From a virus, in UHGV virus genome UHGV-0037185: a DNA stretch of 29,639 nt; one strand, given 5' to 3'. Positions 1,707 through 27,550 of the stretch are shown piece after piece. The first letter of the stretch is position 1. Every line of letters starts with the position of its first letter. The notes under the pieces are model-generated. The model was not told the DNA's origin, ran no database searches, and saw only the letters and a list, made by a program, of their open reading frames with translations. Both the position numbers and the translations under genes were made by a program.

Positions 1707-4153
1707 TTAACCGTCATGCATCATGCTGGCACGGGCGCGCGCACGTTTATCCCGCTCGTATTTTTCGAGCGCATCCTGTAACTGGCGGTCAAGCTGTGCC
1801 CCCGGCGCAGTACCACCCGTCAGGCTGATGTGATATTCGTTTTTACTCTGGTCCACATAAGAGCGACCAGCCGGTGCCGTGACCGGCTGATAAGCCTGAT
1901 AGCCTGCATAAGAGCTGGTCGCCGGAATATAACCACCGGTGCCATACGTGGCGGCATGAGTCCTTGCGGCGGTCTGGTCAAGTGTGTCTGACTCTTTGTT
2001 GATAACCCCGAGTTTTTCCAGTACCCAGTCAATACCGCTGCGCAGTTTGTTGAACGCATTAAGCGGCAGCATCAACGCGTCAGCCAGTGCCTGCCCGAAC
2101 ATGACGCCCGTGTCACGGCAACGGTTCAGGGTGTCCTGGGTGGCTTTAACCGGGGCAATCAGGTTTTTAAACCACTGCCACGCGGCCTGTAACTTTTCGC
2201 CCAGCCAGTCAAACACCGGCTTCAGTGGCGTGAACAGTTCTCCCACCGGCGCAAATGCCGCTTTCAGCCCTTCCACCACACCGCCAAAGAATGCGCTGAC
2301 AGGCTCCCAGTATTTACGGATAAGCAACGCCCCGGCGACAATGGCGGCCACCACGGCCACAACCGGCCAGCTAATCGCCCCGATGGTCGTCATAACAGCA
2401 CTGCTAACCGTCGTGAAGATTGCCCCCATTGCGCCTGCTGCCGCGATAATGGCATTGATGCCGGTGATAACCGGCCAGGCTACAAGACCAATGGCACCGA
2501 TGATGCCAATAAGCGCCAGCGCGCCACCGACAATGAGGCCGATGGTTGACGCCAGTGATTTGTTTTTCTGGATCCAGCCGTCGAGTTTTAACACATACTT
2601 TGTGGCCGTCTGAGTGAGCTTACGCAGTGCGCCTTCCTGCTGGTCAAACAGGTCAGTCCCCACTGCCTCATAAGCGGACTGAAACTCTTTAAAGTCACCG
2701 CCTAGGTTGTCCTGCATGATATTTACCAGCTCGGCGGTCTTCCCGTCTGAGGCTTTAAACGCAGCGGTCAGTTTGTCCAGCTTTCCGGTTGAGGCGGCAG
2801 TCATCAGCACGGCGGCGGCTGAGCTGGCCTCCTCCCCGAAAATAGTTTTCATGTATTCAGCCTGCTGGGCAGTACCGAGCCGGTTTTTCTCAAAACTGGC
2901 CTGCATTTCTTTCAGAATGGTAAATATTGGCCGGGTGTTTCCCTTGCTGTCTGAGGTTTTCACTCCAAGCTCTTTGAGTGCATCCCATGCTTTTCCCGTC
3001 GGTGCCTGCAGGCGGCTTAATACGGCACGGCTTCCCGTCCCCGCCATTGAGCCTGTGATTTTTGCATCATGCAGCGCCCCGACCATTGCGGCGGTTTCTT
3101 CAATGCTGACATCGGCATTTTTTGCCACAGGTGCGGCATAGGTCAGCGCATCGCTCATGCCGTCAAAATCGGCGGCGGTTTTGTTCATCGTCATGGAGAG
3201 AACATCCCCGATATGAGCGACCTTATCGTTTGAAAGCTGAAAGGCGGATTTCATCCCCATCAGCAGGGCGGCGTTTTCTTCCATCGTGCGGCGGTTCGCC
3301 AGCGCCATATTCAGCGTGACCGGCGTTGCCGCCTGAATGGCATCAACATCCCCACCCGCTTTCGCGATGATTATCTGTGCACCGGCCGCATCATCCGCCG
3401 AGGCGGCGGTATTGTCGCCGAGCTGGCGCGCCTGTTTGCGTAGTGCGGTCATTTCGGCGGAGTCTTTTGCCACTCCGAGCACGGCCTGCAATTCTGAGTT
3501 TTTCTGCGCAAACTCATAACCGGGCATCAGCAGCTTAACTCCGGCCATCGTTCCCGCCGCCGCAATCCCCACACCGGCAGCGCCACTGAGGCCATATTTC
3601 CGGCCAGTTCCTTTCCGGCCTGATAACGCTGTTTGACTGCGTTAAGTTTTGCCTGTTGCGCACTGACACGCGCCAGCGCGTCGCGCTGACGGTTAAGCTG
3701 TGCGGTGGTTTCACTGATACGGTTTTTCAGCCCCTGCTCATCATGTGCAAGATTGCGGGTATTAATTCCCACAACGGCCAGTTCCCGCTGCTGGCGTTTA
3801 ACGGAATCCGTCAGGCGGTTATATTTCGCCTGTAAGTCCTCCGCCGCACGCTTTGCGGATTCCAGCACTTTCGCCTGAGCACGTGTCGGACGTTCGGTGT
3901 TTTTAAACTGTGTGGCAAGGGCTTCGGCCTCCTGCCGTGCCTTTTCAAGTGCATGACCAGTCACGGCGAGCTGTGCACTGGTCTTGCGAAATCCCTCAAT
4001 ACGGGATGCGTGACCGTTCAGCTCGCGCAGTGATTTTTGTGTTTCCCGGATATCCCCCGACAGCGACTTACTCGCTGTGCGGATGGATTTAAACGGGCGG
4101 GATGCCTGGTCAACAGCCCTGAGCAATACCTGTAATTTTACATTGTTACTCAT
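1707..4153 (-). pseudogene. T: Tail tape measure protein gpT, interrupted by an apparent 1-nt deletion frameshift near 3578-3590
   Basis: Two ORFs (3527..4153, 208 aa, starting MSNNVKLQVLLRAV; 1707..3572, 621 aa, with long hydrophobic and Gly/Ala-rich stretches) are collinear with one tape measure protein. Span is 2447 nt, one nt short of the 816 codons expected for an 815-aa P2-like gpT. Confidence 0.8.
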
Positions 4154-7031: not shown

Positions 7032-7427
7032 ATGATGCCACTTGCCCGTTATCTCTGCATTTTCATAAACGTTGGTTTGGGAGAAGCGGCAAAACGGGAT
7101 GTGGGAACAGGTTCAGGTCAGATACCGGATATGAGTTCTTTTTCTGGCAGCATTGCCAGCAAGGGATATCAGAAGTTACCGGGAGGATTGATTATCCAAT
7201 GGGGGGCAGGAAACGCAGGTACGGGTTATGTAGGCTCGACAGGCAATGAGATGAATTTCCCAATCGCTTTTCCGTCGCAATGTTTTCAGGTGGTGACATC
7301 CTACGATAATGGTGGCGGAAAAATTGTTGCCGGGGCAGCAGGGAATATGACCAGAACAGGATTTCTTCTACGCTGTGATGCTTCTGGTGGCAATTATAAT
7401 TTTCGCTGGTTTGCAATAGGGTGCTGA
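7032..7427 (+). CDS. Alternative tail-fibre C-terminal segment (Sv'-like), silent in this orientation
   Basis: ORF reads through the left crossover site in the same frame as H (shared ...GLGE junction); Gly-rich fibre-tip-like sequence. The functional part probably begins at the crossover (about 7074). Confidence 0.6.
   Translation: MMPLARYLCIFINVGLGEAAKRDVGTGSGQIPDMSSFSGSIASKGYQKLPGGLIIQWGAGNAGTGYVGSTGNEMNFPIAFPSQCFQVVTSYDNGGGKIVAGAAGNMTRTGFLLRCDASGGNYNFRWFAIGC
7060..7085. other. Invertase crossover site, left (hix/gix-like 26-bp site)
   Basis: ttttcataaacg-TT-ggtttgggagaa; the 12-bp half-site GGTTTGGGAGAA is the exact reverse complement of TTCTCCCAAACC in the right site. Confidence 0.7.
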
Positions 7428-7428
7428 T

Positions 7429-7872
7429 ATGAGTAATTATTATTTTTCACGGACGACGTTAGCTTTTTATCCGGTAGATATGCTGGAGCTATATCGCTCA
7501 TATGACAGCTTACCGGATGATATTACGCCAGTATCTGATGAAATATTTTTGACTTATTCAGGAACACCACCTGAAGGGAAAGTGCGCGGTGCAAATGATG
7601 ATGGACAACCTGAGTGGGTTGATATTCCACCAATGGCTCCTGAAGAAGCAATACTCCTTGCCACAGCTCAAAAGCAAAATCTTATTGATAATGCCAACGA
7701 ATATATGAACAGTAAGCAATGGCCTGGCAAAGCAGCTATTGGTCGTCTGAAAGGTGACGAACTGGCGCAATATAATTTGTGGCTGGATTACCTGGACGCA
7801 CTGGAACTGGTCGATACTTCCGGTGCGCCAGATATTGAATGGCCTACGCCTCCGGCAGTTCAGGCCAGATGA
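7429..7872 (+). CDS. Tail fibre assembly protein, alternative copy (U'/Tfa'-like)
   Basis: 147-aa ORF directly after the Sv' segment; C-terminus (...LWLDYLDALELVDTSGAPDIEWP) is homologous to that of the convergent tfa at 7844..8446. Confidence 0.8.
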   Translation: MSNYYFSRTTLAFYPVDMLELYRSYDSLPDDITPVSDEIFLTYSGTPPEGKVRGANDDGQPEWVDIPPMAPEEAILLATAQKQNLIDNANEYMNSKQWPGKAAIGRLKGDELAQYNLWLDYLDALELVDTSGAPDIEWPTPPAVQAR

Positions 7873-8446
7873 CATCCGGCGCGGTGCTGGTATCTGTTGC
7901 CGTCACCGCGTCAATGTAATCCAGCACAGCGTTAAGGCGGGTTGTTTCTGCCTGCGTCAGCTTCCGCCCGGCCTGTAATTTCAACTGAATCAGACTAATG
8001 GAAGCCATTGCAGTATCCATCAGCGACTGGCGCTGTGCTTCTGCTGCGTCTACTGCGGCGCTATGCTGTGCCTCAGTATCGGTCACCCATTTCTCACCAT
8101 CCCATTTATCGTATGGCGTTAATGGGGCGATAGTGGTTGTATTTTCAGGGTAATCACCCGGAGCGGTGATTTCTTTTGATTCTCCTGTTTTGGTGCTATA
8201 GACCGTTTCACCGCGATGGTCTGGCACATATTCCCATGAGTTAAAATCTGCAGAACGGCAGATTGCATAACCAGCCTTATGTGTGCCAGGGGCATCTAAA
8301 CAGGAACATGCCGGAATGCCGACACCAACGGCAAGATATTCATTTGAAGTGGAAATATATTCCCGAGTTTCACCATCATAGCTATAGACGGTAATATTCC
8401 CCGCCTTCGTGGCAATAAGCTCGCTATTTAATACAGCGTTATCCAT
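7844..8446 (-). CDS. G: Tail fibre assembly protein (gpG/Tfa-like), expressed copy
   Basis: 200-aa ORF directly downstream of H (TAATG overlap); conserved Tfa C-terminus (...LNAVLDYIDAVTATDTSTAPDVIWP). Confidence 0.85.
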   Translation of the reverse strand: MDNAVLNSELIATKAGNITVYSYDGETREYISTSNEYLAVGVGIPACSCLDAPGTHKAGYAICRSADFNSWEYVPDHRGETVYSTKTGESKEITAPGDYPENTTTIAPLTPYDKWDGEKWVTDTEAQHSAAVDAAEAQRQSLMDTAMASISLIQLKLQAGRKLTQAETTRLNAVLDYIDAVTATDTSTAPDVIWPELPEA

Positions 8447-9738
8447 TATGCAGCCCTCACGATAAAGTTAAATGCAATATTTCGCGCACGTGTTTCCGTT
8501 GATGTTCTGGCAACACGTGATGCATCAAAATAATAATTCGCCTGTTTATATGTACCACCTGTCGCAATTGATGCGAGATTTGGTGTCAATGTTGAAGAGG
8601 TAAATGCGCCGACAGTATTATTATTTGGCCCCGTGGTCATATCCAAAAAGCTACCTGTAATATTTTGCAGCGTATCGCTCTGAGCACTCAATAACGCTCG
8701 CCCACTGTCCACTCCACGCCCATCATCCCAGCCACGAATAAACTCACCACGTAAATCAGGCAATTTATTTGTCGGGTAAGCCTTTGCCAGCTCCGGGTAT
8801 TCTTCAGCAGAAAAAGCTGCACCATTGCATTTCAACCAGCCTGTCGGTGGTGTAGCTGAAGGCCACGGAACAGGCACACCAACAGGTAATGCAGAGCCTT
8901 CTCCCAAACCAAGGTATGCGAGAAGACCGGCAACATCCTTTCCACTCAAATGAGTCAGCGTATTGTCCAGCGGTTGTTTACCTGCCAGCGCATTGTTAAT
9001 GGTGGTGCTGAATTTCGGGTCATTGTTAATGGCTGCGGCAATTTCTTTCAGTGTATCCAGCGTGGCAGGCGCACCGTTAATCAGAGCGGTAATAGCCGCC
9101 TGAACAAACGCAGTGGTCGCAATCCGCGTGGTGTTATTTCCTGCAGTAGGCGTCGGCGCTTTTGGTTCTCCGGTAAATGTCGGATTATGTTTCTGTGCAT
9201 ACTGGGTATGAGGATCCTGTGCGGCAATATGCTTTCTCATTTGGTCATCCACATACAGCCTTAATTCCAGGACTTCATCATCCACGTATTTACGGGTCGC
9301 CAGTACCACCGACGGGTCGATTTTCAGCGTGATAGCTTCGGTATTCGTGACAACCAGAATCATGCGGATAGTCTGGGTACGACCACTGCCTTCCTGCAAC
9401 TGCGGTTTGTACGTTTCCGGGCAGTTCGCCACCGCAATGAGTACGCCTTCATCATCATAAAGCCCAATCTCACGGATCCAGAATCCGCCCTCGTTCTCAG
9501 GGATGATTTGCTCCGCAATAATCTGGCTCTGGTTGTTCGGGTCAACACTCAGAAGATTCAGCGGCGCGATGCGTTTCTGGTTAATAAGTTTTGTCTGTGC
9601 CGGGTCTGGTGTCGGCAAGACACCATTTGCATCACCAACGGCCATTTGCGTCAGATTCAGCTTACTGCCGAGCATCGTCGCGTTAGCCAGCCGTGCCGCG
9701 CCCTGATTAGTCAGAATGGCGTAGTATTTCACTGTCAT
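8446..9738 (-). CDS. H: Tail fibre protein gpH (constant N-terminal part plus currently expressed variable C-terminal part)
   Basis: 430-aa ORF after gpI; C-terminal region has the tail-fibre motif GEFIRGWDDGRGVDSGR; the crossover site lies in frame at about codon 276. Confidence 0.85.
   Translation of the reverse strand: MTVKYYAILTNQGAARLANATMLGSKLNLTQMAVGDANGVLPTPDPAQTKLINQKRIAPLNLLSVDPNNQSQIIAEQIIPENEGGFWIREIGLYDDEGVLIAVANCPETYKPQLQEGSGRTQTIRMILVVTNTEAITLKIDPSVVLATRKYVDDEVLELRLYVDDQMRKHIAAQDPHTQYAQKHNPTFTGEPKAPTPTAGNNTTRIATTAFVQAAITALINGAPATLDTLKEIAAAINNDPKFSTTINNALAGKQPLDNTLTHLSGKDVAGLLAYLGLGEGSALPVGVPVPWPSATPPTGWLKCNGAAFSAEEYPELAKAYPTNKLPDLRGEFIRGWDDGRGVDSGRALLSAQSDTLQNITGSFLDMTTGPNNNTVGAFTSSTLTPNLASIATGGTYKQANYYFDASRVARTSTETRARNIAFNFIVRAA
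8899..8924. other. Invertase crossover site, right (within H)
   Basis: ttctcccaaacc-AA-ggtatgcgagaa, an imperfect dyad (TTCTCCCAAACC / TTCTCGCATACC) with an AA core. Confidence 0.7.
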
Positions 9739-10346
9739 GCGTTTACTCTCAGGTTATCAATTAAATGAATGGCCGAGGCCGGGAAATAATCCCCTCCGAC
9801 AATAATGGCCTCCGGGGTGTAGGGATAAACCGTCAGGGCGTCACCGTGATAGCATCCCGCACCGGCAAAAATGTTGCCGGTTGTACTTAAACTGATAGCC
9901 AGTCCCGTCAGATGGCGACTTGCAGGTTTTGCATCAGCAACGAGACGCTCCAGCTCCTGATACATTTCCTCGGTAATACCCTGCTCAAGCACGCCAACAA
10001 CGATGCGGAACGTCCCCGGCTCCTCGTTGAGCTGCCACCACTCCCTCACCTCAATCAGATAGCCGAGCGGCTCCACCACACGGCGAATCGCACCAATAGT
10101 GCCCTTATGGCAGTGAATGAAATACGCATCGCGGATAACAGCGCGTTTTGTCGCTTCCGGCCATTTATCATCCCAGCGGTCAACCGAAAATGACCACGCC
10201 AGCCACGGCAGCAGATTTGCCGGACAGGTATCCGGGTTCCACAGCTCACGAATACTGACCGGCGTTTTTTCAATTTCCGCACAGGCTTTTGCGGCGGCGA
10301 CTTCAAGCGGTGATGAGCCGGTCGGCAGCAGGCGCGAATCACTCAT
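9735..10346 (-). CDS. I: Baseplate assembly protein gpI
   Basis: 203-aa ORF between J and H by P2 synteny (V-W-J-I-H-G). Confidence 0.8.
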   Translation of the reverse strand: MSDSRLLPTGSSPLEVAAAKACAEIEKTPVSIRELWNPDTCPANLLPWLAWSFSVDRWDDKWPEATKRAVIRDAYFIHCHKGTIGAIRRVVEPLGYLIEVREWWQLNEEPGTFRIVVGVLEQGITEEMYQELERLVADAKPASRHLTGLAISLSTTGNIFAGAGCYHGDALTVYPYTPEAIIVGGDYFPASAIHLIDNLRVNA

Positions 10347-11245
10347 CCGAGCCTCCGGTCACGACGCTGTATTCGGTGCAGAAAGACGCCTGCGTACTGT
10401 TGAGCACAATGTCGGCCAGTGGTGCGGCCAGCTCGACACGCTGCACGCCTTCCACATGCAAAGCGGCATAAATGGCAGACAGACGGATGTCACGCCCCAG
10501 CCGGTGCTGTGCCGTGATGTACGCTTCCAGTTTTTTCACGGCAGCAGCGCGGATGGGTTCGCTTTCGGGACCAGGGTAAAGGTAAAGCGTGGCGTTTATC
10601 TGGTATTCAACGATGGCGGCAGACTGCACGGTCACGCGGTCGGCCACCGGCCTGACGTCCTCACCATTAAGGGCGTTACGCACCACGGCCAGCAGGTCTT
10701 CGGATGCAACACCGTTATTTTCACGTGACAGCACAGAGATGGTGACGCAGGCCGGAGACGGACTGGTTACAGAAATATCCGCGACACGCCCGTCGGCACT
10801 GCGACCATGATACTGATAGGCTCCCACCGACCCGGCGACGCTTAAACCTTCAAACGCCTGCTGAATACGCAGACGGTAATCGGTGTCAGATTCCATCACG
10901 GCCGGTGTCGGCGGGAGGGTCGAATCATCTGCCGGGGTGATAGTCAGGCGCGTGGTGTTGTAATTGGCACCAATCACATCAAGGTCATTACCGGCGGCAC
11001 AGGCCAGCATTACCGCCCGTGCAGCCTCATACACGCTGACGCCAGATAAGCTCACGATAAGCATTTTCCTCCAGCAGTTTGACGAGAGGCTCGGATTCCA
11101 GCGTCAGGGTACGGGCGACCGCCTCCTGCTGGTCTTCCGGGTAAAGGGAAATCAGTGTCGCCTTGCGTTCGGCGAGAATGGTTTCAAAGTCCAGCTCCTC
11201 GACCACATCCGGTGCGGGTAGCTGGTTCAGGTCGATAATCGGCAT
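10339..11245 (-). pseudogene. J: Baseplate protein gpJ, interrupted by a frameshift near 11029-11035
   Basis: N-terminal 72-aa ORF (MPIIDLNQLPAPDVVEELDFETILAERK...) stops at 11027; the remainder continues in another frame (10339..11064). Span is 907 nt, two nt short of the 909 expected for a 302-aa P2 gpJ. Confidence 0.8.
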
Positions 11246-12748: not shown

Positions 12749-13208
12749 CCCACTTACTCACCAGTTCACCATTGATATAAAGCTCCATCGGGCGGGTGAC
12801 CGGCTCCGGCAGCGGGGGTTCCGGGATATTCTTCACATGCAGCGCGCCGTCAACCTCACTGACCAGCGTGCGCTCGGTCAGCATCAGGCTGATGCTGATA
12901 TCAAAGCTGCTGTCATTGTTGATGTCCGCATAAAACGTGAAGCCCTTTTTCTGGCCTTCGTCGGTGGTCATGATGTCGGGCTGATTTTCCCGCAGCCACG
13001 CCAGCACCGGCACGATGAGCAGGTCAAAATCACCGGTAAAGTCGGTCACAATGACATTGAGCGTGTAACGCTTTTCAAATGACAGCGACGTCGCCAGTGT
13101 GGAGGCAATACTTCCGTTATCCACGAATATCCGCAACATCTCGGGACTGGTTTTCAGCACCGTGACGGCATCAGTCAGCGCCCTGCGCAGGCTGTCGGGT
13201 TTGAGCAT
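12741..13208 (-). CDS. R: Tail completion protein gpR
   Basis: 155-aa ORF, same length and position as P2 gpR. Confidence 0.85.
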   Translation of the reverse strand: MLKPDSLRRALTDAVTVLKTSPEMLRIFVDNGSIASTLATSLSFEKRYTLNVIVTDFTGDFDLLIVPVLAWLRENQPDIMTTDEGQKKGFTFYADINNDSSFDISISLMLTERTLVSEVDGALHVKNIPEPPLPEPVTRPMELYINGELVSKWDE

Positions 13209-13461
13209 CGTTTCCGTCCTGACAGTGTTTAATCATTTTTATCTGGCTGGCACAGTGTGCCAGCGCGTTCTCAAGCTGCCGGATATCGGCACTTAAATCG
13301 CCGTTCGTCTGCGGGTCACTGCCCGGCATCGGGCAAAGGCTCACTTTCGGGCAGGCGTTGGCGACAATCACTGGCGTCAGTGCAGGCGGGGCGCTGGTGC
13401 AACCGGCGCACAGCATCAGGCAGGCCAGCGCCGTACCAGCGGCGAAAATCTTCGTTTTCAT
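13171..13461 (-). CDS. lysC: LysC (Rz1-like outer-membrane lipoprotein spanin), nested and out of frame in lysB
   Basis: Internal start gives MKTKIFAAGTALACLMLCAGC..., a signal peptide with lipobox (LCAGC); starts inside lysB and extends past its stop. Confidence 0.7.
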   Translation of the reverse strand: MKTKIFAAGTALACLMLCAGCTSAPPALTPVIVANACPKVSLCPMPGSDPQTNGDLSADIRQLENALAHCASQIKMIKHCQDGNDAQTRQPAQGAD

Positions 13462-13741
13462 TAAGTAACCTCGTGATGGTTTTCTCGCGCTGTGCTTCAC
13501 GCTTCGCGGCGTTCTCCAGTTCCTGACGCAGTGCCACCTGCGCCAGCTCGTTTTTGTCTGCCCTGGTGATGGCAACATGAAGCTGATTTTGCAGCATGGT
13601 GATGGTCGTCTGCTGCCCGCTGGCGACGTTGTTCGCCCTGTCCAGCGAGGCGCGCAGGCTGGCGTTTTCATGCTTCACCAGAAACAGCCCCGCCAACGCC
13701 AGCGATAACAGCACAACCATCACAATCATCAGCTTTGACAT
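13316..13741 (-). CDS. lysB: LysB (Rz-like inner-membrane spanin)
   Basis: 141-aa ORF with N-terminal transmembrane helix (MSKLMIVMVVLLSLALAGLFLV) and coiled-coil-like remainder; same length as P2 LysB. Confidence 0.85.
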   Translation of the reverse strand: MSKLMIVMVVLLSLALAGLFLVKHENASLRASLDRANNVASGQQTTITMLQNQLHVAITRADKNELAQVALRQELENAAKREAQREKTITRLLNENEDFRRWYGAGLPDAVRRLHQRPACTDASDCRQRLPESEPLPDAGQ

Positions 13742-14154
13742 GGTTCCCGCCCCTCAAAACGCTGACGGCAGGCCGTACGTATCAGCCGGAAGAACACCGA
13801 CGCCACGAGATAAATCAGCGCGGTAAAAATCCACCCGGCAGCGACCAGCGAGATAAACGTCGCCACCATCACCACCAGAGCCACCGCCCGTCTGCGCCAC
13901 GGCACCGGCTGCAAAAACAGCGACGTGACAATCTTCACGGCCAGCGATTCCGGCGGAAGCTCCCGCCCGTAGCGTTCCAGCACATACTCAGTGGCATACA
14001 CGCCGACACCACCGGCAACCACACAGATAACCGTCGCCAGAATCGCCCAGGCGGCGACAAAATTGACGGCCACGCTCTGCGGGTAAATCAGGGACAGTGC
14101 CAGCATCAGCGCCAGCGACACGTTCAGCATCAGTGAAAGGGATAATTTCTTCAT
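13729..14154 (-). CDS. lysA: LysA, multi-pass membrane lysis-timing protein
   Basis: 141-aa hydrophobic ORF between K and lysB; same length as P2 LysA. Confidence 0.8.
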   Translation of the reverse strand: MKKLSLSLMLNVSLALMLALSLIYPQSVAVNFVAAWAILATVICVVAGGVGVYATEYVLERYGRELPPESLAVKIVTSLFLQPVPWRRRAVALVVMVATFISLVAAGWIFTALIYLVASVFFRLIRTACRQRFEGREPCQS

Positions 14155-14168
14155 GGTGTTTACTCCGT

Positions 14169-14666
14169 TTAAGCCGGTACGCCGCCAGCGGTACGCCAGA
14201 CGGTGACCAGTTTTTCCAGTGAATGCTCACGCTGACCGTAACCGGCACCCGGCAGGGACGCCCAGATATTGCGACAGCGTGAAATGGCTCGCTCAATGCG
14301 TCCCGCCCGGATGTCATCCAGTGCACCGCGTTCGCGGATCAACTGAATGGCAAGTCTGTCCTGTGACAACGGACTGAAATCCGGCAGGGCAAGCTGTTTG
14401 CGGTAATGCGGCCAGAACAGGTAAAGCTGCTGATAGCGACCGGAGGCCGTGGATTTTTCACCGCGACGGTTAAACACCTTCGCCGGTCGGCCATGTGCGA
14501 ACGGGTGGTCACTGTAGTCGGTGAAAATTTCCGGCTTCCCGTCCAGTCCGGTGACTATCACGTCATAGCCCCGGTTTTTCGTCAGCGGATGGTTTGCCGT
14601 CCCTTCGGACACGGCCAGCATGTCGAGAAAGGCGGCGATATTCTGATGCGTGTTAATAACCGGCAT
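14169..14666 (-). CDS. K: Endolysin gpK (phage lysozyme family)
   Basis: 165-aa ORF (MPVINTHQNIAAFLDMLAVSEGT...) at the P2 K position; its start overlaps the holin stop. Confidence 0.9.
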   Translation of the reverse strand: MPVINTHQNIAAFLDMLAVSEGTANHPLTKNRGYDVIVTGLDGKPEIFTDYSDHPFAHGRPAKVFNRRGEKSTASGRYQQLYLFWPHYRKQLALPDFSPLSQDRLAIQLIRERGALDDIRAGRIERAISRCRNIWASLPGAGYGQREHSLEKLVTVWRTAGGVPA

Positions 14667-14946
14667 TACGGTTTCCCCCTGCCCTTAAAGCGGCGCTGAA
14701 TGGCAATCTCAATCACCTGATAACCGGCGATACCCAGCATGGAGCCGATACCGCACACCGCAGGCAGTGACAGGTCAGGAAACTGCACCAGAACAACACC
14801 GGCAACCATCGAGACAAACCACCAAGCAACATGCGCCCGATAAACAGACGCGGGGTGATGGGTTCACCACCGGCAAGCACCTTGCCGACAACAATCAGCA
14901 CCCCAATCATGAAAAGCGACAGGACGCTTTTTTCTTCTGCTGTCAT
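14666..14946 (-). pseudogene. Y: Holin gpY, interrupted by an apparent 1-nt deletion frameshift near 14812-14818
   Basis: N-terminal 45 codons (MTAEEKSVLSLFMIGVLIVVGKVLAGG...) are in one frame; the holin-like C-terminus (VSMVAGVVLVQFPDLSLPAVCGIGSMLGIAGYQVIEIAIQRRFKGRGKP, stop overlapping the K start) is in another. Span is 281 nt, one short of 94 codons. Confidence 0.8.
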
Positions 14947-15153: not shown

Positions 15154-15662
15154 CAGATTTGACTCACGATGCAGCGCGGCTTGTCCTGGATGCGCGCCAC
15201 TGCCCAGCGCATATCCCGCCACAGCTCATCAATGGTGCTGTCAATGCTGTCGGCCTTCTTGTCGCCTTTCGCACTGGCATCCACGCCGCGATAACGCTCA
15301 TAAAGCGACGCGGTCGCCATCGCACACACGGCGCGCTCGTAGTAAAAAACTTTGATACTTTCACCGTCGATGTCGTCCGCCGGAACGTCCGCCAGACGCG
15401 TAAAACCGGCGGCAATTTTCTGTTCGCGGTACTCGTACAGCTCCGCATTTGTTTCCGCCATGCCTGACTTGATGGCCTCACGCAGACGGGCGGGGGCGAC
15501 GGTCTGCTCAAGGCGCATACGTTCCCGGACGCGCTTCGGGTCGATATCGGGAAAAAAGAACGTGTTTTTAATCACCGGCTCGTCGCCTGCCGGTTGCGGG
15601 ATGACCACCGTACCCTCACCGGACACGGGAGCCTCCTTTCGCGGAATAATCAGCGTCATCAT
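15153..15662 (-). CDS. L: Capsid completion protein gpL
   Basis: ORF 15153..15722; the start at MMTLIIPRKEAP gives 169 aa as in P2 gpL. Confidence 0.8.
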   Translation of the reverse strand: MMTLIIPRKEAPVSGEGTVVIPQPAGDEPVIKNTFFFPDIDPKRVRERMRLEQTVAPARLREAIKSGMAETNAELYEYREQKIAAGFTRLADVPADDIDGESIKVFYYERAVCAMATASLYERYRGVDASAKGDKKADSIDSTIDELWRDMRWAVARIQDKPRCIVSQI

Positions 15663-15761
15663 GACTACCTCTGAAAAGTCGGGCGGTGGACGCCGGTGCA
15701 GTGTCAGGTGATTCACCCTCACTGACCGGCGTGCCGCCCTGGCGCGGGGCGCATTCGGTTG

Positions 15762-16505
15762 TTAACTGGCTTTCTTTTTCGGGCGTCCACGTTTTGCCGG
15801 TGTCACGCTCCGGGTCTTACGCGGGGTACGGGTGGCCGCTTTTGGCTGCGGCTCCGGCTTCGGTTTCAGCTCCCGCTCCAGTCGTTCAATCTCTTTTTTG
15901 ACGCCTGCCTGACAGTCGAGCTGTGTCGCACGTTGCAGATGCGCCAGCGCCCCTGCGGCATCACCAGCGTCACGCAGAAACAGACCGGTGATTTTGTGCA
16001 GCTTTGCGCGCACTTCATCAGGCATGTCTGCCGTGGCGGTCAGTGCAAGGGTCTCCGTCAGCAGGCGGGTATCCACAGACTCACCGGCAGCGTGGGCGCG
16101 CATGGCCGCGAGCGCCACCTCCTCGGTGAACATGTACGGCGGGGTGCGGCGGTGTTTACCCGGCATGGTCAGACCGTACTTCAGGGCATAACGGGCAATC
16201 TCCAGCGCACCGGCAATATCGCCGGTATCCAGACGCCACAGCATGACCGTCATCAGAATGTCATCCTGTGCACCTTTGCCCTGCTCCAGCACGCCGTTCA
16301 CCCACGGCAACCAGAACGGCAGCAGTTCGCGTTTTTTCGCGGCCTTCAGCTCTTTTGAATAAATCGCTTTCAGTGTGCGCTGGTCTGCGGCCAGCTTGAC
16401 CAGCATCTGCTCATAGACAGTTGCATGTCGCAGCGGGGCGGCGTCCCGCTGCGCGGTCATCGCTGCCGAGACCCGCATCATGTGGCGCTGTGCGGGACTC
16501 GTCAT
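15762..16505 (-). CDS. M: Terminase small (endonuclease) subunit gpM
   Basis: 247-aa ORF, same length and position as P2 gpM. Confidence 0.88.
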   Translation of the reverse strand: MTSPAQRHMMRVSAAMTAQRDAAPLRHATVYEQMLVKLAADQRTLKAIYSKELKAAKKRELLPFWLPWVNGVLEQGKGAQDDILMTVMLWRLDTGDIAGALEIARYALKYGLTMPGKHRRTPPYMFTEEVALAAMRAHAAGESVDTRLLTETLALTATADMPDEVRAKLHKITGLFLRDAGDAAGALAHLQRATQLDCQAGVKKEIERLERELKPKPEPQPKAATRTPRKTRSVTPAKRGRPKKKAS

Positions 16506-18667: not shown

Positions 18668-20440
18668 ATGACCATCACCACAGACACCACTCTTTTACAC
18701 GACCCGCGTCGTCAGGCGGCGCTGCTGTACTGGCAGGGATTTTCCGTGCCGCAGATTGCCGCCATGTTGCAGATGAAACGCCCGACGGTGCAGAGCTGGA
18801 AACAGCGCGACGGCTGGGACAGCGTTGCCCCCATCAGCCGTGTCGAAATGAGCCTGGAAGCGCGGCTGACCCAGCTCATCATCAAACCGCAGAAAACCGG
18901 CGGTGACTTCAAGGAAATTGACCTGCTGGGACGCCAGATTGAACGACTGGCACGGGTAAATCGCTACAGCCAGACCGGCAACGAGGCAGACCTTAATCCG
19001 AACGTCGCTAACCGCAACAAAGGCGGGCGGCGCAAACCGAAAAAGAATTTTTTCAGTGACGAGGCCATCGAAAAGCTGGAGCAGATTTTCTTTGAGCAGT
19101 CTTTCGACTATCAGTTGCACTGGTATCGCGCCGGGCTTGAGCACCGCATCCGCGATATCCTGAAATCCCGCCAGATTGGCGCAACGTTTTATTTTTCCCG
19201 CGAGGCGCTGCTGCGCGCCCTGAAAACCGGTCATAACCAGATTTTTCTGTCGGCCAGTAAAACGCAGGCGTATGTGTTCCGCGAATACATCATCGCCTTT
19301 GCCCATCTGGTTGACGTTGACCTTACCGGTGACCCGATTGTCCTGGGCAATAACGGCGCAAAACTGATTTTTCTCGGCACCAACTCCAACACCGCGCAGA
19401 GCCATAACGGCGACCTGTACGTCGACGAGATTTTCTGGATCCCGAATTTTCAGGTACTGCGTAAGGTGGCATCAGGTATGGCCTCACAGAGTCACCTGCG
19501 CTCGACCTATTTCTCCACCCCGTCCACGCTGGCGCACGACGCCTACCCGTTCTGGTCGGGTGAACTGTTTAACCGGGGACGCGCCAGCGCCGCCGAACGC
19601 GTGGAAATCGACGTCAGTCATAACGCCCTTGCCGGTGGGCTTCTCTGTGCGGACGGTCAGTGGCGGCAGATTGTCACCATTGAGGACGCCCTGAAAGGTG
19701 GCTGCACGCTGTTCGACATTGAGCAGCTCAAACGCGAAAACAGCGCCGACGATTTTAAAAACCTGTTCATGTGTGAATTTGTTGACGACAAGGCATCGGT
19801 GTTCCCGTTCGAGGAGCTGCAACGCTGCATGGTCGACACGCTGGAAGAATGGGAAGACTATGCGCCGTTTGCCGCAAATCCGTTCGGCTCACGTCCGGTA
19901 TGGATTGGTTACGACCCGTCACACCGTGGCGACAGCGCCGGATGCGTGGTACTGGCACCGCCGGTGGTGGCCGGTGGCAAATTCAGAATACTTGAGCGTC
20001 ACCAGTGGAAAGGCATGGACTTTGCCACCCAGGCGGAATCCATCCGCAAACTCACCGAAAAATACAACGTCGAATACATCGGAATTGATGCCACCGGCCT
20101 CGGTGTCGGCGTGTTCCAGCTCGTGCGCTCGTTCTATCCCGCCGCGCGCGATATCCGCTACACGCCGGAAATGAAAACCGCAATGGTGCTCAAGGCAAAA
20201 GACGTTATCCGCCGTGGCTGTCTGGAATATGACGTCAGCGCCACCGACATCACCAGCTCGTTTATGGCTATCCGCAAGACCATGACCAACAGCGGACGCA
20301 GTGCCACCTATGAGGCCAGCCGCAGCGAGGAAGCCAGCCACGCCGACCTCGCCTGGGCGACCATGCACGCCCTGTTAAATGAGCCACTCACCGCGGGTAT
20401 CAGCACTCCGCTGACATCCACCATTCTGGAGTTTTACTGA
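18668..20440 (+). CDS. P: Terminase large (ATPase) subunit gpP
   Basis: ORF from GTG 18644; the ATG at 18668 (MTITTDTTLLHDP...) gives 590 aa as in P2 gpP. Confidence 0.9.
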   Translation: MTITTDTTLLHDPRRQAALLYWQGFSVPQIAAMLQMKRPTVQSWKQRDGWDSVAPISRVEMSLEARLTQLIIKPQKTGGDFKEIDLLGRQIERLARVNRYSQTGNEADLNPNVANRNKGGRRKPKKNFFSDEAIEKLEQIFFEQSFDYQLHWYRAGLEHRIRDILKSRQIGATFYFSREALLRALKTGHNQIFLSASKTQAYVFREYIIAFAHLVDVDLTGDPIVLGNNGAKLIFLGTNSNTAQSHNGDLYVDEIFWIPNFQVLRKVASGMASQSHLRSTYFSTPSTLAHDAYPFWSGELFNRGRASAAERVEIDVSHNALAGGLLCADGQWRQIVTIEDALKGGCTLFDIEQLKRENSADDFKNLFMCEFVDDKASVFPFEELQRCMVDTLEEWEDYAPFAANPFGSRPVWIGYDPSHRGDSAGCVVLAPPVVAGGKFRILERHQWKGMDFATQAESIRKLTEKYNVEYIGIDATGLGVGVFQLVRSFYPAARDIRYTPEMKTAMVLKAKDVIRRGCLEYDVSATDITSSFMAIRKTMTNSGRSATYEASRSEEASHADLAWATMHALLNEPLTAGISTPLTSTILEFY

Positions 20441-21886: not shown

Positions 21887-22708
21887 TCACATGCTCATCA
21901 AAAAGGTCACTAACATCATACCCCGACTGAAACACTGGCTCATGATAGCCACGTCGGTGAATGGCTCTTTTTCATGTGTTATATAATATTGACCATAAAC
22001 ATTTGCAGATTCATCTGCATCATTAAGACTAAGGACTGTTTTTGCTTTGACTTCAGGCATCAGAGAAAAATCAATATTATTCAACAAACACAGTAAGATG
22101 CCTGCTATTGCTCTCCTGTTATTATCAAGCGGCATCAAGTCCACCCCTGGAATCGCCTTCCGAAGCAATATTTTCAGCTCATTAAATAAAGAGTCGAACT
22201 TAATTGCGTCAGAACAATTGAGTAACGACAAAGCTTCATTAATCATTCGCCCTTCATTGGAACCAATTTCTGATGTTAACTTACAAACACCATCATTAAC
22301 AATATACGATTTTTTGTTATTAAGCTTCTTCCTCGCTGTAATTACCTGTCCCCCCTTTAAGTTTAACTTCTCCTTTAAAAACTCATCACTGAACATTCTT
22401 AATTGCAGTCTGATTAATGTAGGTAAGTATTTCGGGTATTCATTTAACTCTGGTTTAACAGCATACTTGTCGCGTCCAAATTTTAAACTTAATAACAAAT
22501 GATTCCTCAGCATGATATCCTTTATCTCGCCTTGATCTCTCCGATGATTATGGGCAACAAAACTCCCAATTTCAAAAATACACTTGGGCGCACTCGGCAA
22601 CTCACGGGCCGTAACAAAAAGAACATCAATATCACTATCAGTGAAACTCCCATCCTTTAATCTTCTCAACACTCTCTCTATTCTTGAGATTGCTTTACTT
22701 TTATTCAT
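21887..22708 (-). CDS. Hypothetical protein, 273 aa, AT-rich cargo gene at the tin/old position (candidate anti-phage defence protein)
   Basis: Long ORF in a strongly AT-rich stretch flanked by GC-richer phage genes; same strand as A, ends about 240 bp from cos; no family recognised. Confidence 0.7.
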   Translation of the reverse strand: MNKSKAISRIERVLRRLKDGSFTDSDIDVLFVTARELPSAPKCIFEIGSFVAHNHRRDQGEIKDIMLRNHLLLSLKFGRDKYAVKPELNEYPKYLPTLIRLQLRMFSDEFLKEKLNLKGGQVITARKKLNNKKSYIVNDGVCKLTSEIGSNEGRMINEALSLLNCSDAIKFDSLFNELKILLRKAIPGVDLMPLDNNRRAIAGILLCLLNNIDFSLMPEVKAKTVLSLNDADESANVYGQYYITHEKEPFTDVAIMSQCFSRGMMLVTFLMSM

Positions 22709-27049: not shown

Positions 27050-27550
27050 TTAATGCAGATATTGCTCTGGTTTTACCGACGTCAGAATTGTCGGTGCATA
27101 CTCAAACAGGCTGAATAATTCACGTAATGCACGGAATAAAGCATCACGCCAGTAACATGATTCTTCATTAATTCGCCAGTATGGCTGGTTGAATTCTTTT
27201 TCAGTCAATCCGGCATGCATAAATAAAGTACGACGCTGACTGACTGTTAAAAAACTAATATATGCATACTCACTTGCGCCAACCTGACGGCGTTTTGAGA
27301 ATGCCCCACGCAATTCATCAATTGCACATACCAGTCGTTCACGTTCGACATCATTCATTTCTTCAAAACGCATCGTTGCGTGGCGCTGTTTTAACTGCGC
27401 ATGGAAGCAAACCGTTAGCCGTTCGCGTTCCATCATCTGATTATAATAATCGCATGTCTCCTGCCAGCGAGGGACGGCAAGATGCTTACCAATTATCCTG
27501 CGCATAGCTGCTGGCTGTTTTTCGACGAGATTAAGCGTCATCACTGTCAT
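27050..27550 (-). CDS. B: Replication protein gpB
   Basis: 166-aa ORF, same length and position as P2 gpB. Confidence 0.85.
   Translation of the reverse strand: MTVMTLNLVEKQPAAMRRIIGKHLAVPRWQETCDYYNQMMERERLTVCFHAQLKQRHATMRFEEMNDVERERLVCAIDELRGAFSKRRQVGASEYAYISFLTVSQRRTLFMHAGLTEKEFNQPYWRINEESCYWRDALFRALRELFSLFEYAPTILTSVKPEQYLH

Follow-up and report, generated by a model that had tools for sequence, protein, structure and literature searches.

A one-base frameshift in holin gene Y of a P2-like prophage is probably a consensus error of the deposited assembly

Results

Organization of the prophage and its lysis cassette

The stretch of DNA analysed here (29,639 nt, hereafter the window) holds nearly the whole of a P2-like (Peduovirus) prophage of Escherichia coli. 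Its late genes are mostly encoded on the minus strand and follow the order known from P2, namely D, U, T, E, FII, FI, an invertase with an invertible tail-fibre segment, G, H, I, J, W, V, S, R, lysC, lysB, lysA, K, Y, X, L, M, N and O; the exceptions are P and Q, found on the plus strand, after which come a cargo gene, the replication genes, cox, C and int (Table 1). The minus strand carries a lysis cassette of P2 type, Y-K-lysA-lysB-lysC, in which the gene order of P2 is kept, and at 95-99.5% identity the X-Y-K region matches 110 phage records and the complete genomes of about 1,500 E. coli. The reading frames of K, lysA, lysB and lysC are all whole, in agreement with the original prediction that the endolysin and the spanins are intact. 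The endolysin sequence occurs in identical form on at least 1000 contigs and carries the name of the P2 endolysin (ENLYS_BPP2). The lysC gene was delimited as the C-terminal 96 codons of an open reading frame at 13171..13671, with the equivalent annotated gene as a guide, and the antiholin-like role of lysA is taken from PMC3091744. In P2 itself, Y is a class I holin with three transmembrane segments (PMC3091744).

The tail-fibre segment of this prophage is also found in the other orientation. In GCA_029333355.1, another assembly of the same lineage, the portion corresponding to window positions 7069-8891 is inverted (locus L029, 14827..16649) and encodes a 393-aa fibre with a Gp53-like C-terminus, whereas the orientation in the window yields a 430-aa fibre with a Collar domain. 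The tail-fibre switch therefore flips within the lineage.

Table 1. Features of the window discussed in the text, with positions counted from its first nucleotide
Feature	Position	Strand	Remarks
Tape-measure gene T	1707..4153	-	split into 208-aa and 621-aa ORFs; intact 815-aa gene in GCA_045889855.1
Private deletion 1	3583-3584		CC, against CCC in sisters; in T
Invertible tail-fibre segment	6411..8891		adjoins a Pin/Gin-like invertase
Baseplate gene J	10339..11245	-	TC missing between 11030 and 11031 (2-nt deletion); stop after codon 72; 72-aa and 241-aa ORFs
lysC, Rz1-like lipoprotein spanin	13171..13461	-	96 aa, MKTKIF...LCAGC at start; intact
lysB, Rz-like spanin	13316..13741	-	intact
lysA, antiholin-like membrane protein	13729..14154	-	intact
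Endolysin gene K	14169..14666	-	intact
Holin gene Y, P2-type class I (PF04550)	14666..14946	-	281 nt; frameshifted in the deposited record
Y C-terminal-frame ORF, from Met47	14666..14809	-	stop overlaps the K start
Y frameshift ORF, 77 aa	14713..14946	-	43 native and 34 out-of-frame residues
Private deletion 2 (missing-base site of Y)	14816..14818		plus-strand AAA (TTT in the gene), against AAAA/TTTT in sisters and other relatives; one T of a T4 run gone
Private deletion 3	18657		G, against GG; non-coding, 10 nt ahead of the ATG (18668) of terminase gene P
Hypothetical cargo gene	21887..22708	-	between portal gene Q and the DUF3850/gpA genes; 273 aa, against 298 aa in relatives
Private deletion 4	21937-21938		GG, against GGG; C-terminus of the cargo gene
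A4 run	~27032		between gene B and the next early gene; A5 in more distant relatives
Gene B	27050..27550

Holin gene Y is interrupted at a single site

Position and family both identify the gene ahead of K as the holin gene that the original prediction had taken it for: it lies directly upstream of the endolysin gene at the place of Y in the P2 cassette, stop and start codons overlap, and both of its frames match the phage holin family PF04550 (Phage_holin_3_2). The gene runs from an ATG at 14946 to a TAA at 14668-14666, where the last A of the stop in TAATG (14666-14668) is the first base of the K ATG. Its span falls one nucleotide short of 94 codons, as had been claimed, and compares with 282 nt for Y of pro483 and of P2. 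The prediction had called for comparison with Y of related P2-like phages; aligned end to end with these two intact genes, the window shows a sole gap, where the phages read GGTGGTTTTGTC and the window reads GGTGGTTTGTC, one T of a run of four being absent. The one-nucleotide frameshift thus lies inside the interval 14800-14830 to which it had been assigned.

The frame is lost at codon 44 (Phe), midway through the second hydrophobic segment, and the native C-terminus (residues 45-93, ending QRRFKGRGKP) sits in another frame, whose stop overlaps the endolysin start just as originally described. On the PF04550 profile the first frame of the window matches positions 1-44 and the second matches 47-86, so that a single open reading frame spanning the family profile is absent, whereas the intact gene of a related assembly (GCA_045889855.1) matches positions 1-86 with E = 2.6e-42. 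By Kyte-Doolittle analysis the 93-aa holin of such relatives has hydrophobic centres at residues ~12-23 and ~41-58 and a weaker one at ~66-68, followed by the charged tail QRRFKGRGKP. The 77-aa product of the window retains only the first of these segments and has lost the second, the third and the tail. Cut within its second segment, the product would not be expected to function.

The two frames could be imagined to be joined by a programmed ribosomal frameshift, or to encode a two-piece holin, so that the gene would be functional as written. P2-like phages do use a programmed frameshift at the tail genes E/E′ (PMC3091744), and nothing else speaks for the idea. A slippery heptamer (X XXY YYZ) is absent from the junction, GGTGGTTTGTCTCG, Y is in one frame in all close and distant relatives, and the break falls in the middle of a hydrophobic segment. 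We therefore rejected a programmed frameshift or functional split holin as extremely improbable.

The deposited sequence differs from its sisters by one-base deletions only

The window is 100% identical to contig QSAB01000004.1 of assembly GCA_003464885.1 over 15,950 bases, and the Y deletion is therefore truly part of the deposited sequence; no holin gene has been called on that contig. Exact-protein look-ups yielded sister assemblies of the same prophage lineage, which come from isolates or samples other than the strain of the window: GCA_045889855.1 (loci L007 and L028), GCA_902848375.1 (L010), GCA_029333355.1 (L029), metagenome ERZ28581819 (L030), and the Logan assemblies SRR25825048 (L011 and L031), DRR737447 (L012 and L032) and SRR13048128 (L033). 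Over 4-20 kb, each of these sisters shows 0-2 substitutions relative to the window. All but DRR737447 cover the Y site, and in all six of them the site reads AAAA/TTTT and a 93-aa holin is called. The deletion is thus missing from every independent assembly of the same haplotype that reaches the site, as would be expected of an artefact.

This difference is one of four. Across the 29.6 kb, four differences from the sisters are private to the window, and every one is a one-base contraction of a homopolymer of 2-4 nt (Table 1, private deletions 1-4); private substitutions number zero. At the three sites other than Y, too, each covering sister disagrees with the window. Three of the four deletions remove a C or G from a run of two or three, one of them lies in non-coding DNA, and none of the 42 runs of at least 6 nt in the window is altered. 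By comparison, six substitutions and no indels separate the sisters from the window and from one another, and by our own arithmetic the contrast between zero substitutions with four indels and six substitutions with none gives a Fisher p of 1/210. Private homopolymer indels that include a non-coding one and are unaccompanied by private substitutions are likewise what an artefact would be expected to leave. Comparison of the whole window with the closest complete genomes and phages (~97-98% identity) also showed one base missing in T, two in J, one upstream of P, one in the hypothetical cargo gene and one between B and the next gene, and in this comparison no insertion specific to the window was seen.

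The consequences for the annotation extend beyond Y. The tape-measure gene T is split in the record, and its frameshift is probably an artefact of the same kind as that in Y; a protein look-up found the 208-aa N-terminal fragment not to be on record, presumably because a pseudogene is annotated there. The shortened cargo gene product has been deposited as a normal protein, RGW38051.1. This gene has no Pfam match on record, and PADLOC reported nothing for it or for the neighbouring DUF3850 gene. With regard to the host DNA, 1.4 kb of flank is identical to that of two sisters, a length too short to inform on the indel rate of the host sequence, and the contig extents of 174,060 and 174,303 bp are uninformative since the contig ends differ by the order of the assembler k-mers.

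A lineage-wide deletion in baseplate gene J

The original prediction implied a prophage that was intact apart from its holin, and this part of it did not hold: T is frameshifted in the record, and J bears a 2-nt deletion of a different standing. The J deletion is common to every sister that covers the site and was found in none of 1,583 other copies in complete E. coli genomes. Because all sisters have it, it is real, and J is a lineage-wide pseudogene. Only J, in other words, behaves as an inherited lesion, since the deletions in Y, T and the hypothetical gene are not found in the sisters, and it is the sole lesion in the window with independent support. The prophage with the broken J is otherwise conserved to 0-2 substitutions in at least seven datasets. 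It is probably defective regardless of the state of Y, and given a J deletion that none of the 1,583 other copies has, infectious particles are unlikely to arise from it.

The A4 run near gene B is shared as well, being present in all covering sisters, and is therefore a real non-coding polymorphism and not an artefact.

Deletions in Y elsewhere in public sequence data

A 71-nt query centred on the site of the Y deletion matched at 1,698 places, spread over 1,480 of the 5,426 complete E. coli genomes searched. None of these places has the deletion, the top identity of 98.6% corresponding to one gap; nor does any of the 110 phage records have it. Similarly, an exact scan with a 39-mer spanning the deletion found no match in GTDB representative genomes, IMG/VR or JGI metagenomes.

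On the other hand, about a dozen contigs in the protein collection encode a 77-aa frameshift product of Y. Seven such products can be told apart, and they derive from at least five distinct one-base deletions within ~35 nt of the gene. Six or more unrelated datasets contain the T4 to T3 version, on no fewer than three haplotypes (products P0001, P0004 and P0005). One case, in the Logan assembly ERR2740782, carries the exact 77-aa product of the window; 38 substitutions over 2 kb set it apart from the window and make it an independent occurrence of the deletion. These observations could suggest that the T4 run is a mutational hotspot at which holin-inactivating deletions recur and are favoured in lysogens, the window holding one such adaptive allele. 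However, the allele is very rare and so far missing from high-accuracy assemblies, as the complete genomes attest, and the dozen or so contigs with a 77-aa product stand against more than 1000 with the neighbouring endolysin sequence. Moreover, the contigs in question resemble error-prone data: on three of the four contigs shown for P0004 another homopolymer indel lies within 1-2 kb (A6 to A5, A5 to A4, and C5 to C6), and the fourth is a metagenome contig of 3.4x coverage in which the small-terminase gene M is called in two pieces. A run of 4 nt is also too short for phase variation, which we rejected on this ground. We consider an adaptive hotspot very improbable, and the T4 to T3 contractions in unrelated contigs look mostly like recurrent artefacts.

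A different deletion in Y occurs in GCA_044468425.1 (JBHZLU010000005.1, 10001-10234; our locus L027), where a G of GGTGGT is lost and a 77-aa product likewise results. No other indel is present in the 9 kb that could be aligned, and the contig has been seen in two samples; this gene is a candidate for a genuine holin pseudogene.

Discussion

The original prediction left two readings of the Y frameshift side by side, a lysis-defective prophage and a sequencing error. Our comparisons favour the second, on the strength of the TTTT run in six of six sisters and of three further private homopolymer deletions without a single private substitution, and leave the first much less likely. We conclude with considerable confidence that the frameshift is an artefact of sequencing or assembly and not a mutation of the prophage: a TTTT would have been under-called as TTT in the consensus of a deposited draft assembly. 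The actual DNA, then, most likely encodes a normal class I holin of 93 aa, which would permeabilise the inner membrane at a set time and so give endolysin K access to the cell wall, LysA, LysB and LysC acting as modulator and spanins. The finding is an ordinary one, and most likely not a biological loss of lysis.

In mutation-accumulation studies of E. coli, spontaneous substitutions outnumber small indels by about ten to one. Four indels with no substitution are unlike this spectrum and like the product of a homopolymer-prone sequencing chemistry. One of the private deletions is non-coding and one falls in an essential tail gene, and the set therefore does not have the look of targeted selection; with the cargo gene hit as well, it is not the outcome that selection on lysis would give. 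These points bear directly on the alternative that the Y deletion is a real and very recent loss-of-function mutation, by which a lineage already crippled in J has also lost its holin and its tape measure through slippage, would no longer lyse at a set time on induction, and has taken a step in the decay or domestication of the prophage. There is something to be said for it. The shared J deletion already makes the lineage defective, selection on its late genes may be relaxed, and loss of the holin would favour the host. Distinct one-base deletions do occur within the same 35-nt stretch of Y in public data (seven products, at least five positions), at least one of them, that of GCA_044468425.1, in an otherwise clean 9 kb, and the deposited consensus presumably rests on ~100x data. 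Yet four indels and no substitutions in 29.6 kb, next to sisters that differ by substitutions only, do not fit E. coli mutation; the non-coding deletion brings no obvious benefit; slippage should prefer the long runs, all of which are unchanged; and none of the four deletions is present in any other member of the lineage. On balance we hold a real mutation in Y to be unlikely. That all four deletions are real, so that the J-defective prophage of a gut isolate would have been caught in further decay, its holin and tape measure lost before any substitution, we judge slightly less likely again. If they were, they would point to a strongly indel-biased mutation process or to selection that silences the lysis cassette.

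As to the origin of a consensus error, the accession and locus-tag series of the assembly (QSAB01, DWV81, RGW...) is one that we take to be that of the BGI Culturable Genome Reference (CGR) project, from which we infer that the assembly comes. Papers searched for the assembly and run accessions yielded none, and the supplements of the CGR paper list neither NCBI accessions nor the platform used for each strain. For CGR genomes one of two routes was used, HiSeq 2000 with SOAPdenovo or, in part of the strains, Ion Proton followed by assembly in SPAdes 3.1.0 (PMC6784896). Ion Torrent data contain site-specific single-base indels at high frequency, from which frameshifts in assemblies are expected (Bragg et al. 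2013, PMC3623719), and in a strand-asymmetric class of these indels 82% lie in homopolymers of 2-3 nt, with deletions of C and G dominant (PMC3623719). The cause in the present case would thus probably be Ion Proton reads assembled with SPAdes. Several considerations count against a consensus error. The sisters are other isolates or samples, which leaves a small probability that the mutation is genuine and private to the strain of the window. If that strain was instead among those that the CGR project handled with Illumina and SOAPdenovo, a consensus that lacks single bases of homopolymers would not ordinarily be expected. The untouched state of all 42 long runs is not predicted by a simple model in which under-calling depends on run length. 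Finally, ERR2740782 (locus L006) shows the same deletion on another haplotype with no other indel in 2 kb.

A consensus error in this record calls for caution. A public draft with one-base homopolymer deletions gives rise to false pseudogenes, here Y and T, and to a mis-sized protein, RGW38051.1, and any scoring of prophage intactness, lysis competence or pseudogene load from GCA_003464885.1 would mislead, as might other assemblies made in the same way. Were the Y deletion true, this well-understood gene would have acquired an ordinary loss-of-function allele.

Set beside known systems, Y of the window resembles gene Y of P2 in lying between tail gene X and endolysin gene K, in having the same start and in ending in a stop that overlaps the start of K. 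It has 99% nucleotide identity to Y of P2 and of pro483, and the sisters encode the 93-aa protein of pro483. Unlike P2 Y, it lacks one T in the T4 run at codon 44, and the family profile is not contained in one open reading frame. The private deletions of the window in turn resemble the high-frequency indels of Ion Torrent and Proton data (PMC3623719), being site-specific losses of one base from short homopolymers, mostly of C or G, without substitutions; those errors differ in that they occur about once per 1-2 kb at the level of reads, whereas here there are four in 29.6 kb of consensus, from a platform that we infer. A similar case is found in a reference phage record. The P2-like phage of E. 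coli T22 (KC618326/NC_041848; locus L005) has its own one-base contraction in Y, from A6 to A5 near the start at the equivalent of window position 14933; the annotation of its holin begins at an internal start (15544..15789), and its large terminase subunit is in two pieces, the record differing from the window by one base near window position 19069. This is another phage and another site in Y, and its lesions look like similar homopolymer artefacts. The genuine pseudogene of the same prophage, J, is likewise a late gene broken by a small deletion, but whereas all assemblies of the lineage have the J deletion, only one has the Y deletion.
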